IMG/VR virus record: IMGVR_UViG_3300028628_000004
Reading direction: 5' to 3' (one strand)
Length of the DNA stretch: 64,000 nt
Source: a virus
Lineage: Duplodnaviria > Caudoviricetes
The position numbers and the translations under genes are program-made. This document shows positions 22,532 through 38,586 of this stretch, one piece after another (the stretch's first letter is position 1; every line of letters begins with the position of its first letter). Under the pieces are notes generated by a model, which was not told where the DNA came from, ran no database searches, and worked only from the letters and a program-made list of their open reading frames with translations.

Positions 22532-22906
22532 TGGTGGAGATGTGCGGTGCTGCCCCGCAGTCCAAAATCACTTTCATATTCCGTCTACAAGTTTAGAAGT
22601 TTAGACTTAAACTCCAAAGATGCTTCTTGTTGATCGTCCTGGCACGGGACTAGGATAATAACGCATATCCGCAACTCACAGTTGTCTTAATCTTGGGTAA
22701 CTGTCAGTTACATTGCCAAGAAGCAACCCCTATGTTACAGAGTTTCCAAGTCGAGATATCCTTGGGACTCTGGCAAGGAGCGATTAAGCTGCCATTGCGT
22801 ATTCAACTGAGTCATCAGTTATTTTTTTACATGTTTTTTAAGTGACCACATGTTCCACTACTTGCAAGAGATACTTCCACGATCCTGTCGAATCTGTGTC
22901 ATCCCC
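22532..22906 (-). ncRNA. ssrA: tmRNA, tag (A)DDSVEYAMAA*
   Basis: 5' GGGGATGA..GATTCGAC, 3' TCTCCACCA with G3.U; ATAACT then tag ORF at 22816..22784. Confidence 0.93.
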
Positions 22907-22912
22907 ATAAAA

Positions 22913-22990
22913 TGGTGTGCATGAGAGGATTCGAACCTCCAACACTTACGCCCTCAACGTAATACCTCGTGCCAATTGGGTTACACGCAC
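22913..22990 (-). tRNA. tRNA-Leu(GAG), short variable loop
   Basis: TTACG-TT-GAG-GG-CGTAA, CCA. Confidence 0.85.
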
Positions 22991-23820
22991 ATATTTTTTT
23001 CTAGCCAATAACCTCTAGGGAATTTTGGAATATCAATCCCTAGTTTTTTGCATCTTTTGCGTATTGCATTATCACTAACACCGAACATTTTAGCTACGCT
23101 GGTTAACGGCATTTCGTTTATATACTTCGTCAAATCACATGAAGAAACATCAAACTTTTTATTATTTTCACTAATTATAAATTCACCGCATTTTCTATTT
23201 TCATTGTAGCATTTTGCACAAACTCCTTTACTTTTTTTCGACACCACACACCCGCACATTTTACACTTTTTTTCGAAGCGTAACTTCTGGTCGTTTTCCT
23301 TTAATAAATTTTTTTGTTTAGTATTCTGAAGTTTTCCTTTATTACCCCATGTCAATGTTTGTGAATGACAGTTTGGGCATAGAAATCTAAGGTTGTTTAT
23401 TCTATTATCATTATGAATGCCGTTAATGTGGTCTACTTGCAATGTTATCTTTTCGCCCATCCACGTGTCGCCGTTATTGCATTTTTCGCATTTATATTCT
23501 CTTCCATTTTCCAATAGACGCTTACTAATCATATAACCACTTGCGGGGGTTGAATTTTCGCAGAAAAAATCTTCGTCTGATTTTCTTACTCTTATAGCCT
23601 GCATTTTTATTCTCATATCAGTCAAGGAGGTTTTCCCGCGTGACCAAGCAGACCCAGTAAAATGAGATATATCTATATTGAAGTATCTAATTAAACTCTT
23701 TATATGATTATGATTTCCACCACTATATGCCAAACCCAGATTTGCTAAAACATTTGATATTGAGGTTGATTTTTTCACAACTTCTTCTAGTATTTCCTTG
23801 GTGTACTTTCGATGTCTCAT
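22981..23820 (-). CDS. HNH homing endonuclease
   Basis: CEKC..LQVDHING..NDNR..NLRFLCPNCHSQT; stop lies inside tRNA-Leu. Confidence 0.9.
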   Translation of the reverse strand: MRHRKYTKEILEEVVKKSTSISNVLANLGLAYSGGNHNHIKSLIRYFNIDISHFTGSAWSRGKTSLTDMRIKMQAIRVRKSDEDFFCENSTPASGYMISKRLLENGREYKCEKCNNGDTWMGEKITLQVDHINGIHNDNRINNLRFLCPNCHSQTLTWGNKGKLQNTKQKNLLKENDQKLRFEKKCKMCGCVVSKKSKGVCAKCYNENRKCGEFIISENNKKFDVSSCDLTKYINEMPLTSVAKMFGVSDNAIRKRCKKLGIDIPKFPRGYWLEKNMCV

Positions 23821-26013: not shown

Positions 26014-26112
26014 TGGTGCGGGCGACAGGATTTGAACCTGCGATTTCTTGCTCCCTGGCAGTTACTATTAGGTAACTAAAGCAAGCGGAATACCAGACTT
26101 TCCTACACCCAC
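26014..26112 (-). tRNA. tRNA-Pro(TGG)-like with a 22-nt GCCA-ended hairpin insert (26056..26077)
   Basis: CTTGC-TT-T[insert]GG-GA-GCAAG. Confidence 0.75.
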
Positions 26113-26144: not shown

Positions 26145-26219
26145 TGGTCTGGGCGGTTGGAGTCGCACCAACTTCTTCTCCCTTCCAAAAGGAGCCGTCT
26201 ACTGTTGACCTACGCCCAG
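26145..26219 (-). tRNA. tRNA-Pro(TGG)
   Basis: CTCCT-TT-TGG-AA-GGGAG, C1-G72. Confidence 0.85.
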
Positions 26220-26220
26220 G

Positions 26221-26931
26221 TTATATTTCAATTCCAAGAATTTTACATCTTTTTCTTATTGCATTATCAGACACCCCGTATTTTACACCTATTTTAGTCA
26301 TAGGCATTTTGCTAACATCATCCATTAACTGCTCTTTACTAACTTCAAATTTACGGCGTTTCTTACAAGAACATTTTAGACATTTATTGTTTTTATTTTT
26401 TGTTGTTACACACCCACATTCGTCACAGTTATGTCTTTTTGCGTGATATTGTTTATTTTTACCAGAAAAAGTAGAAGTTTGAGAGTGGCAGTTTGGGCAT
26501 AAGAAACATAGATTTTCTATTCTGTTATCATTATGTATTCCATTCTTATGTTCTAATTGAAGAGTTATTATCTTACCCAACCATACTCCATTGTTCCCAC
26601 AGCAACTACACTCGTATTTTAGTAATCCTTCATTGACCAATCTTTTTTTAAGATAATGTCTAGCGTATGATGAATTCTGGGTTAATACCTGTGATAATGG
26701 TTTCTTCTTGGCGTTAAATTTTCTACCTTTATTGGAACCTACGCCGAGTGCTATATGTGAAATATCTACTTTTTCTTCGATGCATCTATTTTTAATTGTC
26801 TTGTAATTTCCTCCTTTATTTTCCATTCCGACATATTTTAGTATTTCGCTTATAGTGTTAGATGATGCTACTAATCTAGCGAATTCTTCTTTTGGTATTT
26901 TCCAAATTATGCTTCTCTTTTTTCTTGTCAT
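26221..26931 (-). CDS. HNH homing endonuclease, paralog of 22981..23820
   Basis: LQLEHKNG..NDNRIENLCFLCPNCHSQT; shared GVSDNAIRKRCK tail. Confidence 0.9.
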   Translation of the reverse strand: MTRKKRSIIWKIPKEEFARLVASSNTISEILKYVGMENKGGNYKTIKNRCIEEKVDISHIALGVGSNKGRKFNAKKKPLSQVLTQNSSYARHYLKKRLVNEGLLKYECSCCGNNGVWLGKIITLQLEHKNGIHNDNRIENLCFLCPNCHSQTSTFSGKNKQYHAKRHNCDECGCVTTKNKNNKCLKCSCKKRRKFEVSKEQLMDDVSKMPMTKIGVKYGVSDNAIRKRCKILGIEI

Positions 26932-27068: not shown

Positions 27069-27188
27069 TAGTTGGGAGTGAGGGATTCGAACCCCCACAG
27101 AGAGATCCTGGCGACTGTTTATGGACTTGAACCACATTGTTTCCTATAACAATCAAAGTCTCTCGTCCTACCATTAGACGAACCCCCA
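27069..27188 (-). tRNA. tRNA-Gln(TTG) with a 46-nt mini-tRNA insert (27109..27154)
   Basis: AGAGA-CT-TT[insert]G-GA-TCTCT; host tRNA ends in CTA rather than CCA. Confidence 0.8.
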
Positions 27189-27827: not shown

Positions 27828-27898
27828 TGCAGGATAGAGGAATCGAACCTCTGACTCCGGCTTAACTGCCGGTGTGATAACCACTTCACCAATCCCGC
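27828..27898 (-). tRNA. tRNA-like with a 6-nt anticodon loop, identity undetermined
   Basis: CCGGC-AGTTAA-GCCGG; intact D and T arms; no CCA. Confidence 0.55.
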
Positions 27899-28330: not shown

Positions 28331-28447
28331 AAAAGACCACACCGTTTCTGCATTGTTAAGAGGCTGGTATGGTGCTACTGAACGACCACTCATGGTTGAG
28401 CATCTTAGAGAGGCTTGAGTGGGGCGGAGCCGTTTCATGCTCCTTAT

Positions 28448-31592: not shown

Positions 31593-31922
31593 TTACTTCA
31601 AAAGCGACAGCTTACCGAAAATAGCTTTGGACACTTCGTTGTCGATGGGTTCAAAAGCAGTTGCGGTTTCTGCGTTAGACATATCGGGTTCTATGAAGGT
31701 GGTGTATGATAACTCCATTCTGTCATAGAGTGCCTTTATGCTTGCAATTTCGTTATCCGTTGCGGAGAGAAGAATCATTGTCTTGTGGTTGTTCACCCAA
31801 TCAATGACTTTGGGCTTCTGTCCGTGTTGTGCCATAAACTCGGCAGCCGCGTGGCTACTCTGTACAGCACAATGAGTTAACGGAAGTATATCTCGTCTGA
31901 TGAGGATGAACATCTTAAGCAT
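31593..31922 (-). CDS. Peptidyl-tRNA hydrolase, Pth2-like
   Basis: KMFILIRRD....CAVQSSHAAAE...W...KTMILL...FIEPD...ETATAFEP; GGAGG RBS. Confidence 0.8.
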   Translation of the reverse strand: MLKMFILIRRDILPLTHCAVQSSHAAAEFMAQHGQKPKVIDWVNNHKTMILLSATDNEIASIKALYDRMELSYTTFIEPDMSNAETATAFEPIDNEVSKAIFGKLSLLK

Positions 31923-31926
31923 TTTG

Positions 31927-32313
31927 CTATATACCTCCGGTGCCACAGGCACACTCGGGTATGAGAGCATCTTGTTTCTCCTTGACGTAATCTTCCATTC
32001 TCTTACGAATGATTTCAGAAGACTGAACATATTCTTTTTCTCTCTCTTCGTTTAAGTGGCACTTACCACGAACCTGTCCATACGCTATATGCATACAAGT
32101 AGTCCGGTACTTATCGTTGCGGATTGCGTTCTCTGCACACCACCAGTATTTTTCACCTGATGTATCGTAGGGGTAGGCATTGCCTGGAAGTCCAGTTGAT
32201 GCACTACGCTGGTTGCGGCGTAAAGCCTGTTTGTTGTGAGCAAGTCTCTCAGCGAGAGTCTTGATTTCGCTGCGGAAAAATTCCATTGCGAGTTTATGTT
32301 GGGTTATATCCAT
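31927..32313 (-). CDS. Hypothetical protein co-transcribed with Pth2
   Basis: AAGGA RBS; HIAYGQVRGK. Confidence 0.75.
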   Translation of the reverse strand: MDITQHKLAMEFFRSEIKTLAERLAHNKQALRRNQRSASTGLPGNAYPYDTSGEKYWWCAENAIRNDKYRTTCMHIAYGQVRGKCHLNEEREKEYVQSSEIIRKRMEDYVKEKQDALIPECACGTGGI

Positions 32314-32445: not shown

Positions 32446-32521
32446 TGGTGCTTCCGGTGGGATTTTAACCCACAACCAAGCGGTTTAGAATCGCTTGCTC
32501 TTTCATTTGAGCTACGGAGGC
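32446..32521 (-). tRNA. Amber suppressor tRNA (CTA)
   Basis: AGCGA-TT-CTA-AA-CCGCT, full cloverleaf, ACCA. Confidence 0.8.
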
Positions 32522-34324: not shown

Positions 34325-34399
34325 TGGAGCAGTGTAAGGGAATTGAACCCTTGTATCCAGCTTGGAAGGCTGGCACATAAGCCTCTCTGTCAACACTGC
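34325..34399 (-). tRNA. tRNA-Gly(TCC)
   Basis: CCAGC-CT-TCC-AA-GCTGG. Confidence 0.88.
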
Positions 34400-34606
34400 A
34401 TAGGATCTACTATACGCGAGCTAGTAGATGTTTTATTTCTTTCTTTGAATACCACTCATCGTCCCTCGCATCGTAATGGGTGATATGAAATTTAGGCTAC
34501 TTGGGAATCTTGTTCGCAAAGGAACCACCCGATGCTACTAGAGACTCCTGTTCACACAGGGTACTTACTCGCCGCAACTGGTTAGGAATTAGCTTTCAAT
34601 ACCGTT

Positions 34607-34726
34607 TGGCTGGAAAGAAGGGATTCGAACCCCTGACCTAGTGATTATGGTGATGAGCGTAAGAGTTGAACTTACTGATTCCTTTGCCCATTACAGTCAC
34701 TTGCACTACCGCTGTGCTACTTTCCA
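34607..34726 (-). tRNA. tRNA-Asn(GTT) with a 45-nt mini-tRNA insert (34648..34692)
   Basis: AGTGA-CT-GT[insert]T-AA-TCACT. Confidence 0.8.
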
Positions 34727-34732
34727 ATGATT

Positions 34733-34830
34733 TGGCGTTCCCGGTAGGATTTGAACCTACGACCATTGGATTATGGCAGTGATTTGTTAATCACCGAAAT
34801 CCAAAGCTCTTCCAACTGAGCTACGAGAAC
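34733..34830 (-). tRNA. tRNA-Arg(TCT) with a 22-nt GCCA-ended hairpin insert (34774..34795)
   Basis: TTGGA-TT-TC[insert]T-AA-TCCAA. Confidence 0.82.
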
Positions 34831-34833
34831 ATG

Positions 34834-34912
34834 TGGCACCCATGGTAGGAGTTGAACCTACATGTATCCAGTTAGCTTTCTCCTGCTTAGAAGGCAGGCG
34901 GCATACATGGGC
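34834..34912 (-). tRNA. tRNA-Arg(TCT), D-arm-less with expanded variable region
   Basis: CCTGC-CT-TCT-AA-GCAGG. Confidence 0.75.
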
Positions 34913-35707: not shown

Positions 35708-35781
35708 TGGAAGCGCAGAAAGGAGTCGCACCTTTATCTATTGGTTATGAGCCAATTATGCTACTGTTACACCACCGCGCA
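35708..35781 (-). tRNA. tRNA-Met(CAT), 1:72 mismatch
   Basis: ATTGG-CT-CAT-AA-CCAAT. Confidence 0.8.
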
Positions 35782-36530
35782 GTGTTAATACGAATTCTAC
35801 CCTTTACAAATCCCATTTCTATATATTTGTTTATGTCATTTTTATTTATTCTAAAACATTCACCAGTTTGAAGATTCTTCACCCATATGAGTTGAGAATA
35901 TATTTTACCATATCTCTCTTTCATAGTGTTTGATAAGTTTTCTCTTGTTTCTTTCGATGACATTCTTTCTTTCATTTTTTGTGAAAGTAATGTCTTAGTT
36001 TCGTTACTTCCACATTCACTCTCTTTTTTGTATCTTTCTTTTACTGATAATGAGATTTTGTTTCTTACCTCATCATTTATATATCTTTTCTTTGCTCTAT
36101 CTGACATTTTCTTTCTCGTTTCATCTGATATAATTCTTGTCTTATTAGTATCTATCATTTTTTGTTTTGATTCTTTCGAGTAGGTTTTTGGTTTCTGACT
36201 TATTATGGAGAGCTTTCTTTTTGTCTCATCAGTGTGATTCTTTCCTCTAAACTTTGGTCCACCTTCGCCACCAACTGATATGTTATAAACATCTTTTCTT
36301 TTTATAAAATCTTCATTCACAATAAGTATTTCCATTTTATCCATTTGCTCTTCGTTGTCAAAAACATGGAGTATTTCTTTTGTAAAGTTACTTCTCCCAT
36401 ATTTCTTAACGGCAGCCTTTATATGATGTCCGGAACCTAAGTAATCATCGTTGATATTTTCGGTTTGGTGCTTCCCAATGTAAATCTTACCGTTTATCTT
36501 ATTAGTTATCTTGTATATGGTATAAAACAT
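35745..36530 (-). CDS. GIY-YIG homing endonuclease (Seg-like) with NUMOD3-type repeats
   Basis: TIYKITNKINGKIYIG; YNISVGGEG; HTDETKRKLS; GGAG RBS. Confidence 0.9.
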   Translation of the reverse strand: MFYTIYKITNKINGKIYIGKHQTENINDDYLGSGHHIKAAVKKYGRSNFTKEILHVFDNEEQMDKMEILIVNEDFIKRKDVYNISVGGEGGPKFRGKNHTDETKRKLSIISQKPKTYSKESKQKMIDTNKTRIISDETRKKMSDRAKKRYINDEVRNKISLSVKERYKKESECGSNETKTLLSQKMKERMSSKETRENLSNTMKERYGKIYSQLIWVKNLQTGECFRINKNDINKYIEMGFVKGRIRINTARWCNSSIIGS

Positions 36531-36667
36531 AATACTCCTATTATACCAGTATTTATATTTCATAACCAAACGATTTACTGCTTCTCTATCAAAAATGGGA
36601 GCCAACCTAACGCAAGCTAGGGACACTTTTTACGGCTATCACAACTTACATACGACACAGATGAATC

Positions 36668-36817: not shown

Positions 36818-36973
36818 ATGTGAGTTACAGAGCCAAATGTAACTCTTATTATATTTACATGGTCGGGTTGGTCCTCCATGGGTCGCTGACAACAGAATTG
36901 CTGTGCGAGCCAACTCTCCCTCTTGCGAGTTCTATGAGTTGCGCTATCTATTGCTTTGACCGTTCTATACAAC

Positions 36974-37049
36974 TGGTACTCCTTGAGAGACTTGCACTCT
37001 ACTTTATACGCTTGAAAGGCGTGTTTCTTACTACATAGAAGAAAGGAGC
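36974..37049 (-). tRNA. tRNA-Glu(TTC), variant elbow
   Basis: ACGC-CT-TTC-AA-GCGT. Confidence 0.8.
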
Positions 37050-37100
37050 ATGAACAGAGTTTTTCTTCCGCCAGGAAAAGGAAACTCCAAAACTTTGAGA

Positions 37101-37963: not shown

Positions 37964-38037
37964 TGGCTGCCCCAAAGGGAATCGAACCCCTATGATCTGA
38001 TTAACAGTCAGACATAATACCATTATATGACAGGGCA
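37964..38037 (-). tRNA. tRNA-Asn(GTT)
   Basis: TCTGA-CT-GTT-AA-TCAGA. Confidence 0.88.
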
Positions 38038-38505: not shown

Positions 38506-38586
38506 TAGAGCCTCTGACGGGGATTAGGCACCCCGCTTCCTCCGGTTTACAGTCCGGTGCTTTAAACTAATATAAGCTACAGAAGC
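38506..38586 (-). tRNA. Thr-like tRNA with irregular anticodon and T loops, identity undetermined
   Basis: CCGG-ACTGTAAA-CCGG; ends in CTA. Confidence 0.5.

Follow-up and report, generated by a model that had tools for sequence, protein, structure and literature searches.

Two neighbouring tRNA genes of a T4-like phage from sewage sludge, tRNA-Arg(UCU) and tRNA-Asn(GUU), are interrupted within their anticodon loops by inserts of 22 and 45 nt, each of which begins with base 1 of a 6–7 bp helix, ends in RCCA and upon removal leaves a normal anticodon loop of 7 nt. The genes lie on the minus strand of the 64,000-nt stretch of phage DNA analysed here (IMG/VR record IMGVR_UViG_3300028628_000004; hereafter the window), within a large array of tRNA genes that contains two further interrupted cases, tRNA-Pro and tRNA-Gln. 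Our favoured interpretation, to which we assign a probability of roughly 0.45, is that the Arg and Asn inserts are enzyme-dependent rather than self-splicing tRNA introns, with a splicing signal that would reside wholly inside the intron and be read by RNase P, an endonuclease acting at the encoded CCA and an ATP-dependent RNA ligase.

Alignment to the Rfam tRNA model was end to end in all four genes, with a block of the anticodon loop skipped (Asn, 34610–34726; Arg, 34736–34830; Pro, 26017–26112; Gln, 27072–27188). The Arg gene scored 59.0 bits (model positions 1–71/71) with a gap of 25 positions in the loop, and the Asn gene 57.3 bits (again 1–71/71) with a gap of 46. The minus-strand letters of both inserts match exactly those reported in a preliminary description of this DNA, made from sequence alone, and the loops that it derived by removing them, TTTCTAA for Arg and CTGTTAA for Asn, were likewise recovered. 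In minimum-free-energy folds, both precursors form a cloverleaf from whose anticodon loop the insert extends as a hairpin (Arg, z = −3.7, with 0 of 200 shuffles equal; Asn, z = −1.5). The Arg insert consists of a 7-bp helix capped by a loop of 4 nt (alternatively, 6 bp capped by 6 nt) followed by GCCA, and the Asn insert of a 7-position acceptor-like stem, a 10-nt linker containing AGGAA, a 5-bp T stem that abuts the 3′ strand of the first stem, the T loop TTCAACT and ACCA. An artefact of assembly, which the preliminary description had named as a concern, can be dismissed: the stretch with both genes is present at 100 % in 14 activated-sludge runs, an independent aquatic contig spans 34342–35388 with nine substitutions and no gaps, and both interrupted genes recur in IMG/VR contig L001 and ENA contig L017. 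Hairpins of 6 bp followed by RCCA are common in the window (79 sites, versus 52.5 ± 8 in shuffles), and the loose motif is thus no proof by itself. For a given insert, however, the likelihood that its first 6 nt pair with the 6 nt preceding a terminal NCCA is (6/16)^6 × 1/64, or ∼4 × 10−5, and the arrangement of a helix from base 1 plus NCCA is found in all four window inserts and in every further case (for one divergent tail, see below). An origin of the inserts by chance is not plausible.

The identities of the two tRNAs are settled because of their bodies, which carry A20 in the D loop and C35 (Arg), or U1–A72, G73 and a short variable loop (Asn), and because of the gene order in relatives L019 and L027, where an uninterrupted Arg(TCT) is followed after 8–12 nt by an uninterrupted Asn(GTT), as in the window. 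Alternative cuts in either gene would yield other anticodons. The ARAGORN assignment of the Arg gene as Pro(cgg) is ruled out by A20, C35 and synteny, and that of the Asn gene as Tyr(gta), obtained with ARAGORN -i, by U1–A72, G73 and the short variable loop; the interrupted Pro gene is read by the same program as Leu(tag) or Thr. With respect to the splice boundaries, comparison with intron-less homologues fixes the predicted ends of the Pro and Gly inserts exactly. The uninterrupted tRNA-Pro in L015/L016 shares its D arm and anticodon stem with the window Pro gene and has the loop TTTGGGA, which is the window Pro sequence minus 26056–26077; as no sliding is possible in this comparison, both Pro boundaries are uniquely fixed. 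The window tRNA-Gly (34325–34399; loop CTTCCAA) is itself uninterrupted, whilst its counterpart in L001/L017 and in phage G002 has a 35-nt insert ending in ACCA. An intron-less tRNA-Gln with the loop CTTTGGA is present in L014; exon-anchored patterns for intron-less Arg and Gln genes returned only L001 or no match. Among cases found by routes that did not presuppose it, 7 loop nt always lie outside the segment running from helix to tail, and the anticodon fits the tRNA body or the synteny.

It had also been proposed that an uninterrupted tRNA with the same anticodon exists elsewhere in the array for all four interrupted genes. Such twins are present for Asn (37964–38037) and Pro (26145–26219), but none was found for Gln by ARAGORN or Rfam in the window, and that for Arg is doubtful, the only candidate being a tRNA-like gene without a D arm. 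This gene (34837–34912, minus strand; Rfam 39.6 bits) sits immediately upstream of the interrupted Arg-UCU gene and is missing at that spot in L017; its acceptor and T arms are normal, CCA is encoded and the loop is CTTCTAA (UCU), but only ∼4 nt stand in place of the D arm and the variable region has ∼17 nt.

The Asn insert belongs to a long type that imitates the top half of a tRNA, having an acceptor stem, a linker that contains GG, a T arm of canonical form and NCCA. It sits in an anticodon loop, starts at base 1 of a 7-position stem, ends in a discriminator plus 3-nt tail and leaves a 7-nt loop upon removal; it also has the G53–C61 pair, a TTCRANY loop abutting the 3′ acceptor strand and the AGGAA linker, three features absent from the Arg insert. 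As the latter comprises a helix, a loop and GCCA alone, it was filed as a separate, short type. In order to find further long-type members, IMG/VR was scanned with a pattern made from the Asn and Gln inserts (AGGAA linker, T loop, CCA), which returned 70 matches, approximately the chance expectation; these were then filtered by stem pairing. The filtered matches lie in a tRNA-Gln of L027/L055 with a different intron, in a tRNA-Gln of the 332-kb phage G002 and in a class II tRNA of the 164-kb phage G001. A second pattern identified two more members, L119 and L132, and a broad T-arm pattern matched mostly the 3′ halves of ordinary tRNAs. Full reading of G001 and G002 added three more introns, all from G002: in Arg-UCU (48 nt, ending TCCA), in Gly (35 nt, ACCA) and in a probable Thr gene (45 nt, tail AA). 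The G002 intron with the tail AA in place of NCCA (L109:17825–17869; G002, 197.8 kb) is of the long type, with full stem, linker and T arm. The tRNAs of G002 lack an encoded CCA, yet CCA is present in three of its four introns. A CCA end shared by the inserts, as initially described, is therefore frequent and common to all four window inserts, but it is not universal. The likeness noted between the Asn and Gln linkers is real and reaches further than first proposed, AGGAA being invariant in all long-type members, including two from G002 that were found without that motif.

Covariation across these members is extensive. In seven long-type introns aligned in a hand-set register, 82 of 84 stem cells are paired, compared with 47.8 ± 3.9 in shuffles, and 0 of 5000 shuffles did as well. 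The six members of 45 nt, which align without gaps, have 97.2 % of cells paired, and both sides have changed in 11 of 12 pairs; none of 500 shuffles reached any of these measures, and slid partners paired in ≤ 44 %. Pair counts were taken from these two sets; a MAFFT alignment of the members of unequal length misplaced gaps. Pooling all stems gave 149 Watson–Crick, 15 G·U and 2 A·C pairs, and this excess of G·U over A·C places the selection on structure in the RNA of the tRNA sense strand, not in the DNA. The last pair of the T stem is always G–C (G53–C61) and the loop always TTCRANY, as in real tRNAs; by analogy, the GG that is invariant in the linker may take the part of G18/G19 of a D loop and form, together with the T loop, an elbow like that of a tRNA. 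Selection on structure rather than on sequence, as first suggested for these inserts, is thus strongly supported by covariation, by the G·U/A·C asymmetry and by intron-less homologues with identical spliced loops.

At least one free-standing copy of the long element exists among the matches listed in a scan of genome contigs. This 45-nt copy (L306:5058–5102, minus strand) has a stem of 7 bp, the same linker as the Asn intron, a T arm and ACCA, and is not inside any tRNA; two terminator-like hairpins flank it, and a holin-like open reading frame (ORF) and two tRNAs adjoin it. The surrounding region is prophage-like and belongs to a contig from a Clostridium sp. CAG:452 metagenome-assembled genome. 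All 12 of its pairs form, consistent with the covariation alignment, and its existence leaves room for the excised mini-tRNA to have a function of its own.

The short type, in turn, is 22 nt in length, comprises a 6-bp stem, a 6-nt loop and NCCA, and has homologous copies in different tRNAs with compensatory changes. Four variants were identified: window Arg, L001/L017 Arg, window Pro and L027/L055 Pro. The L001/L017 Arg variant has a single change, from U–A to U·G, that keeps the pair. The L027 Pro insert, located one bond further 5′ (33/34), has the same 6-nt loop as the window Pro insert and a stem that is nearly that of the window Arg insert; across the variants, two pairs are changed on both sides. 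Arg and Pro inserts thus have loops or stems in common, and the short type forms a small family whose members have moved from one tRNA gene to another. A short-type pattern scan of IMG/VR returned 86 chance matches and no member outside the lineage of the window phage, and the bare 22-nt microhelix form appears to be new. The interrupted tRNAs of L003 (LR756511.1, a 595-kb phage) were considered as family members and rejected, being of another kind without an NCCA end. In its tRNAs at L003:39115–39241 and 36937–37062 (minus strand), the inserts are ∼55 nt long, have the common motif GCATACAAACA and are apparently located in or near the D region.

The distribution of the inserts among related phages is patchy. 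Interrupted genes are Arg, Asn, Pro and Gln in the window, Arg, Asn and Gly in L001/L017, and Pro and Gln only in L027, with no interrupted tRNA in the parts seen of L019 and L014. The preliminary description placed the inserts at one and the same position; this is true for Arg and Asn, both at 35/36, but family-wide the sites range from 33/34 to 36/37, occupying four different bonds in six kinds of tRNA (Arg, Asn, Gln, Pro, Gly and UAU). Intron subtypes, as defined by linker and T loop, do not track the host tRNA. Moreover, the exons of the window and L027 Gln genes are nearly identical, whilst their introns differ in all seven acceptor pairs and are still paired. The two genes at the centre of this study form a conserved cassette that runs from the first base of Arg to ∼120 nt past Asn, with sharp edges and differing upstream neighbours; it is 97.7 % identical to that of the L001/L017 lineage, compared with 77–93 % for the surrounding array, and only one of 67 intron positions has changed. 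The non-coding segment of ∼120 nt after Asn (34465–34606, minus strand) is near-identical in L017, ∼89 % identical in L019 and missing in L027; it is covered by RNA-library contigs, has no stable fold (z = +0.98) and no Rfam match, and is too invariant for covariation analysis. A PTH2-based search for such loci in IMG/VR found nothing. Patchy presence, constrained exons with freely changing stems, and HNH and GIY-YIG genes among the tRNAs fit a view of the inserts as mobile introns under structural constraint.

The features common to all cases are confined to the insert, whereas the exon context varies and the sites range from 33/34 to 36/37; this points to a recognition signal in the insert, and argues against measurement from the tRNA body. 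If the exons add nothing to recognition, the intron could occupy any bond of the anticodon loop and move between tRNA genes. The proposed pathway would begin with RNase P, which would take the intron as a small pre-tRNA and cut at base 1 of the helix, leaving a 3′-OH on the 5′ exon. An endonuclease of the RNase Z/BN or RNase E kind would then cut directly after the encoded CCA, freeing the 3′ exon with a 5′-phosphate, whilst the acceptor and anticodon stems would keep the halves together. Because both cuts would leave 3′-OH and 5′-phosphate ends, the nick in the anticodon loop would be a substrate for ligases of the Rnl2 or DraRnl type, and sealing by such an ATP-dependent enzyme would give tRNA-Arg(UCU) and tRNA-Asn(GUU).

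Several observations make this proposed mechanism plausible. Bacterial RNase P cuts hairpin and pseudoknot substrates in a manner dependent on a 3′ RCCA, to which U or C at −1 contributes (PMC12710915, PMC3874170). The window inserts carry these sequence features, i.e. helix, 3′ RCCA and pyrimidine at −1, and are predicted to be cleaved accordingly: the insert is preceded by U or C in five of five cases of the window lineage (window plus L001/L017), and each of the four window inserts has a purine as its discriminator. For the 3′ cut, some RNase Z enzymes cleave just past an encoded CCA, requiring a matured 5′ end and no more than an acceptor stem (PMC7479834), and Escherichia coli RNase E cuts immediately 3′ of CCA in proline tRNAs (PMC5291269). 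RNA ligases are encoded in both near-complete intron-bearing genomes, that of G002 being of the Rnl2 type (RNA_ligase plus T4_Rnl2_C) and that of G001 an OB fold plus RNA_ligase protein (OB+NTase), and a DraRnl-type ligase is found ∼7 kb from the tRNA array in two relatives of the window phage. In L014 (16206–17249) and the P0007 contig, a gene for such a ligase (OB fold plus RNA_ligase; JGI name TIGR02306) lies ∼7 kb from PTH2 at the edge of the array, followed by a NAPRTase gene.

Other observations weigh against this pathway. To our knowledge, splicing dependent on RNase P has been shown in no organism. The RNase Z of Bacillus subtilis is strongly inhibited by CCA (PMC7479834), and CCA is not universal in the family; indeed, the G002 intron with an AA tail indicates that it is not strictly needed. 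No gene for an RNA ligase, RNase P or RNase Z was found in the ∼130 kb of the window phage inspected, and a tblastn search with the L014 ligase against the collected loci matched L014 itself only; a separate search for homologues tied no ligase to the window phage. L014, with its ligase beside the array, has 22 uninterrupted tRNAs in the part seen. RNA-library contigs (34463–34677, 34532–34686 and 34665–34814) are colinear with the DNA across the borders of introns and exons and contain no exon–exon joint; given the low depth, and with assembled contigs as the only material, this does not show that spliced forms are absent. Two metatranscriptome contigs end 6–15 nt inside the Asn intron; as they come from one study at a depth of 2–3, nothing is concluded from these ends. 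An apparent skip at 27108–27159 in a DNA run was considered as a spliced form, and was found instead to be an uninterrupted tRNA-Gln(CTG) of another organism.

A number of other explanations were weighed against RNase P-dependent splicing. The released CCA-ended mini-tRNA might be a useful product in itself, for which the tRNA gene would be a host and expression vehicle, much as introns are for small nucleolar RNAs or tRNA intronic circular RNAs; it could act as a decoy or competitor for acceptor-end factors, or as a primer, and the tRNA might still be spliced. This we consider unlikely, even though the free-standing L306 copy retains the full architecture with ACCA and all 12 pairs, the linker and T loop are conserved far beyond the apparent needs of excision, and G002 keeps CCA in most of its introns but not in its tRNAs. 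Only one free-standing copy is present among the matches listed, the 22-nt form, having neither linker nor T arm, offers little beyond helix and CCA, and no partner protein has been identified. The likelihood is lower again that the introns are spliced by way of some other phage or host endonuclease, which would read the hairpin and tail and leave a 2′,3′-cyclic phosphate and a 5′-OH for joining by RtcB or by a PNK/Rnl1-type pair. Such a route would accommodate the ∼130 kb of the window phage without an ATP-dependent ligase, the many array ORFs without family assignment and the tails other than CCA, and T4-type phages are able to heal and seal anticodon-loop breaks with Pnk and Rnl1. Nevertheless, Pfam and PHROGs revealed no candidate nuclease, PNK or RtcB in the window or flanks, and the detailed copying of RNase P and tRNA 3′-end substrates (T loop, G53–C61, RCCA) would be needless for an unrelated nuclease.

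We regard it as improbable that the genes are never spliced, and instead represent inactivated tRNAs, bait for anticodon nucleases or a supply of tRNA halves, with inserts that are the scars of a selfish mobile element. The patchy presence among close relatives, an array full of HNH and GIY-YIG genes, normal Asn and Pro genes elsewhere in the array and RNA libraries with unspliced sequence only would all agree with this. On the other hand, the exons retain full tRNA scores and identity elements, and in every case the loop that remains without the insert has 7 nt and an appropriate anticodon; the Gln exons have hardly changed despite turnover of the intron stems, the array has no uninterrupted tRNA-Gln that ARAGORN or Rfam could find, and the cassette is the best conserved part of the region. 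Finally, there is very little to recommend an element that acts at the level of DNA, such as a recombinase or homing-endonuclease site or a repeat resembling miniature inverted-repeat transposable elements, or an error of assembly. Hairpin-forming inserts beside endonuclease genes can be protein recognition sites, but the ratio of 15 G·U to 2 A·C is specific to sense-strand RNA, the T-loop motif and NCCA are RNA features, and independent assemblies of many samples gave the same sequence.

The only published precedent is provided by the unexplained introns of Lak megaphages, and the present elements are a variant of that kind. These 'enigmatic' tRNA introns are 79–114 nt long, and no mechanism was offered for them (Devoto et al., 2019, Nat Microbiol, PMC6784885). 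Like the inserts described here, they are short, do not self-splice and interrupt phage tRNAs in the anticodon loop, and they contain an acceptor plus T-arm element whose 3′ end is the 3′ end of the intron; they too are present or absent among close relatives, and an RNA ligase was noted in the Lak genome (PMC6784885). Lak introns, however, start with a separate A-rich hairpin and spacer and end at the discriminator (+0 or +1) without CCA (Table S6 of PMC6784885), whereas the present introns of 22–48 nt start exactly at the helix and end in NCCA, with a 22-nt form that has no tRNA-like body. In the literature we found no paper naming or explaining the introns reported here, and a 2026 review of jumbo phages is silent on tRNA introns.

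Archaeal and eukaryal tRNA introns depend on a splicing endonuclease that recognizes the bulge–helix–bulge (BHB) motif (reviewed in PMC4090602). They resemble the present inserts in being small, protein-spliced introns of the anticodon loop with exons joined by a ligase, and archaea also have non-canonical positions and mobile introns. They differ in that the present sites are not at 37/38, the setting is bacterial (a T4-like phage with a transfer-messenger RNA, tmRNA) and the chemistry expected here, 3′-OH and 5′-phosphate, is the opposite of their cyclic phosphate and 5′-OH. A BHB-type intron was rejected on the basis of the sequence and precursor folds: the insert helix starts directly at the 5′ site and ends 4 nt short of the 3′ site, such that no 4-bp exon–intron helix with 3-nt bulges is possible. 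No EndA/Sen Pfam family was found among the ORFs of the window plus ∼65 kb of flanks (an incomplete genome). Group I introns similarly occupy anticodon loops of bacterial and phage tRNAs, e.g. tRNA-Leu(UAA) and Azoarcus tRNA-Ile (PMC13168695), and also lie in bacterial-type tRNAs at varying bonds, but they are ∼200 nt or longer, with a catalytic core (P3–P9) and P1/P10 exon pairing, in contrast to inserts of 22–48 nt without such a core. A group I intron was also rejected, as the inserts measure 22 and 45 nt and no Rfam intron family matched within 20000–41000 at the gathering threshold.

With regard to the two enzymatic steps, bacterial RNase P requires of its substrate no more than a helix followed by 3′ RCCA, with a pyrimidine at −1 (PMC12710915, PMC3874170, PMC11143913). 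The 22-nt insert has exactly the form of the model hairpins and external guide sequences used for this enzyme, but those substrates are laboratory constructs or natural 5′ leaders. We know of no natural case in which a cut by RNase P serves as a 5′ splice site. T4 Pnk/Rnl1 repair and nick sealing by Rnl2/DraRnl (PMC3400036) share the last step of the proposed pathway, the sealing of an anticodon-loop nick in a folded tRNA; T4 repair, however, follows attack by a host nuclease and needs end healing, whereas the break proposed here would be programmed, with ends that are ready for ligation.

The tRNA array itself occupies 22.3–38.8 kb of the window on the minus strand and comprises ∼40 tRNA genes plus tmRNA (ARAGORN, Rfam), with the 3′ CCA encoded by 32 of 38 tRNA matches; the interrupted genes and the cassette are listed in Table 1. 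Flanks of the window were followed via exact-protein look-ups, and the presence of gp32, gp43, gp41, UvsX, gp46/47, RegA, portal, gp23 and terminase identifies the genome as T4-like; no close relative was found among GenBank phages. Four minus-strand features of the array (22532–22906, 28385–28422, 31593–32030 and 32446–32521) are the tmRNA (108.7 bits), an abiF RNA motif (41.6 bits; also in L017), a peptidyl-tRNA hydrolase of the PTH2 type and a tRNA whose anticodon, CUA, reads amber codons, yet long ORFs are normal in the standard code. Homing-endonuclease-like genes of the HNH and GIY-YIG/NUMOD3 kinds lie among the tRNAs (26221–26931, 22981–23820 and 35745–36626, minus strand), one of them between the interrupted Pro and Gln genes. 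Additionally, a tRNA at 27828–27898 (minus strand; Rfam 55 bits) has an anticodon loop of apparently 6 (AGTTAA) or 8 nt, to which ARAGORN gives a 2-base anticodon, and a similar oddity occurs at 38509–38586.

Table 1. Interrupted tRNA genes, their inserts and the conserved cassette in the window
Feature	Position	Strand	Details
tRNA-Arg(UCU)	34733–34830	minus	Encoded CCA; 5′ exon 34796–34830, predicted intron 34774–34795, 3′ exon 34733–34773
Arg insert, short type	34774–34795	minus	22 nt, between positions 35 and 36
tRNA-Asn(GUU)	34607–34726	minus	Encoded CCA; 5′ exon 34693–34726, predicted intron 34648–34692, 3′ exon 34607–34647
Asn insert, long type	34648–34692	minus	45 nt, between positions 35 and 36
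tRNA-Pro(UGG), sister case	26014–26112	minus	22-nt short-type predicted intron 26056–26077, between 34 and 35
tRNA-Gln(UUG), sister case	27072–27188	minus	46-nt long-type predicted intron 27109–27154; no encoded CCA
Conserved cassette	34490–34832	minus	Arg with insert, 6-nt spacer, Asn with insert, ∼120 nt non-coding

To what is known of such introns, the window adds the bare 22-nt microhelix form, a T4-like phage of ∼165 kb rather than a jumbo phage, a conserved cassette of two introns, unique proofs of boundaries from intron-less homologues and a free-standing 45-nt copy. Viewed more broadly, and as a proposal that we hold at somewhat less than even odds, these elements may represent a third way of tRNA splicing in bacteria and phages, in which a mini acceptor-end intron would be cut at its 5′ side by RNase P and at its 3′ side by a CCA-reading endonuclease, with joining by an Rnl2/DraRnl-type ligase; the 22-nt Arg and Pro introns, as helix plus NCCA, would be the minimal element, and the freed minihelix may have a job of its own, such as soaking up tRNA 3′-end factors. 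If this is true, the introns would form a new class, RNase P would have a further role in the cell that is new as well, and the 22-nt form would be the smallest natural tRNA splicing signal known. A cassette of helix plus NCCA that is cleanly excised from any RNA would also be a useful tool. As ARAGORN miscalls such genes (Arg as Pro(cgg), Asn as Tyr, and Pro as Thr or Leu), phage tRNA repertoires and arguments on codon usage that are built on these calls are wrong. For the phage, intron-gated tRNAs could offer a means to control when its tRNAs become available or to shield them, e.g. from anticodon nucleases.

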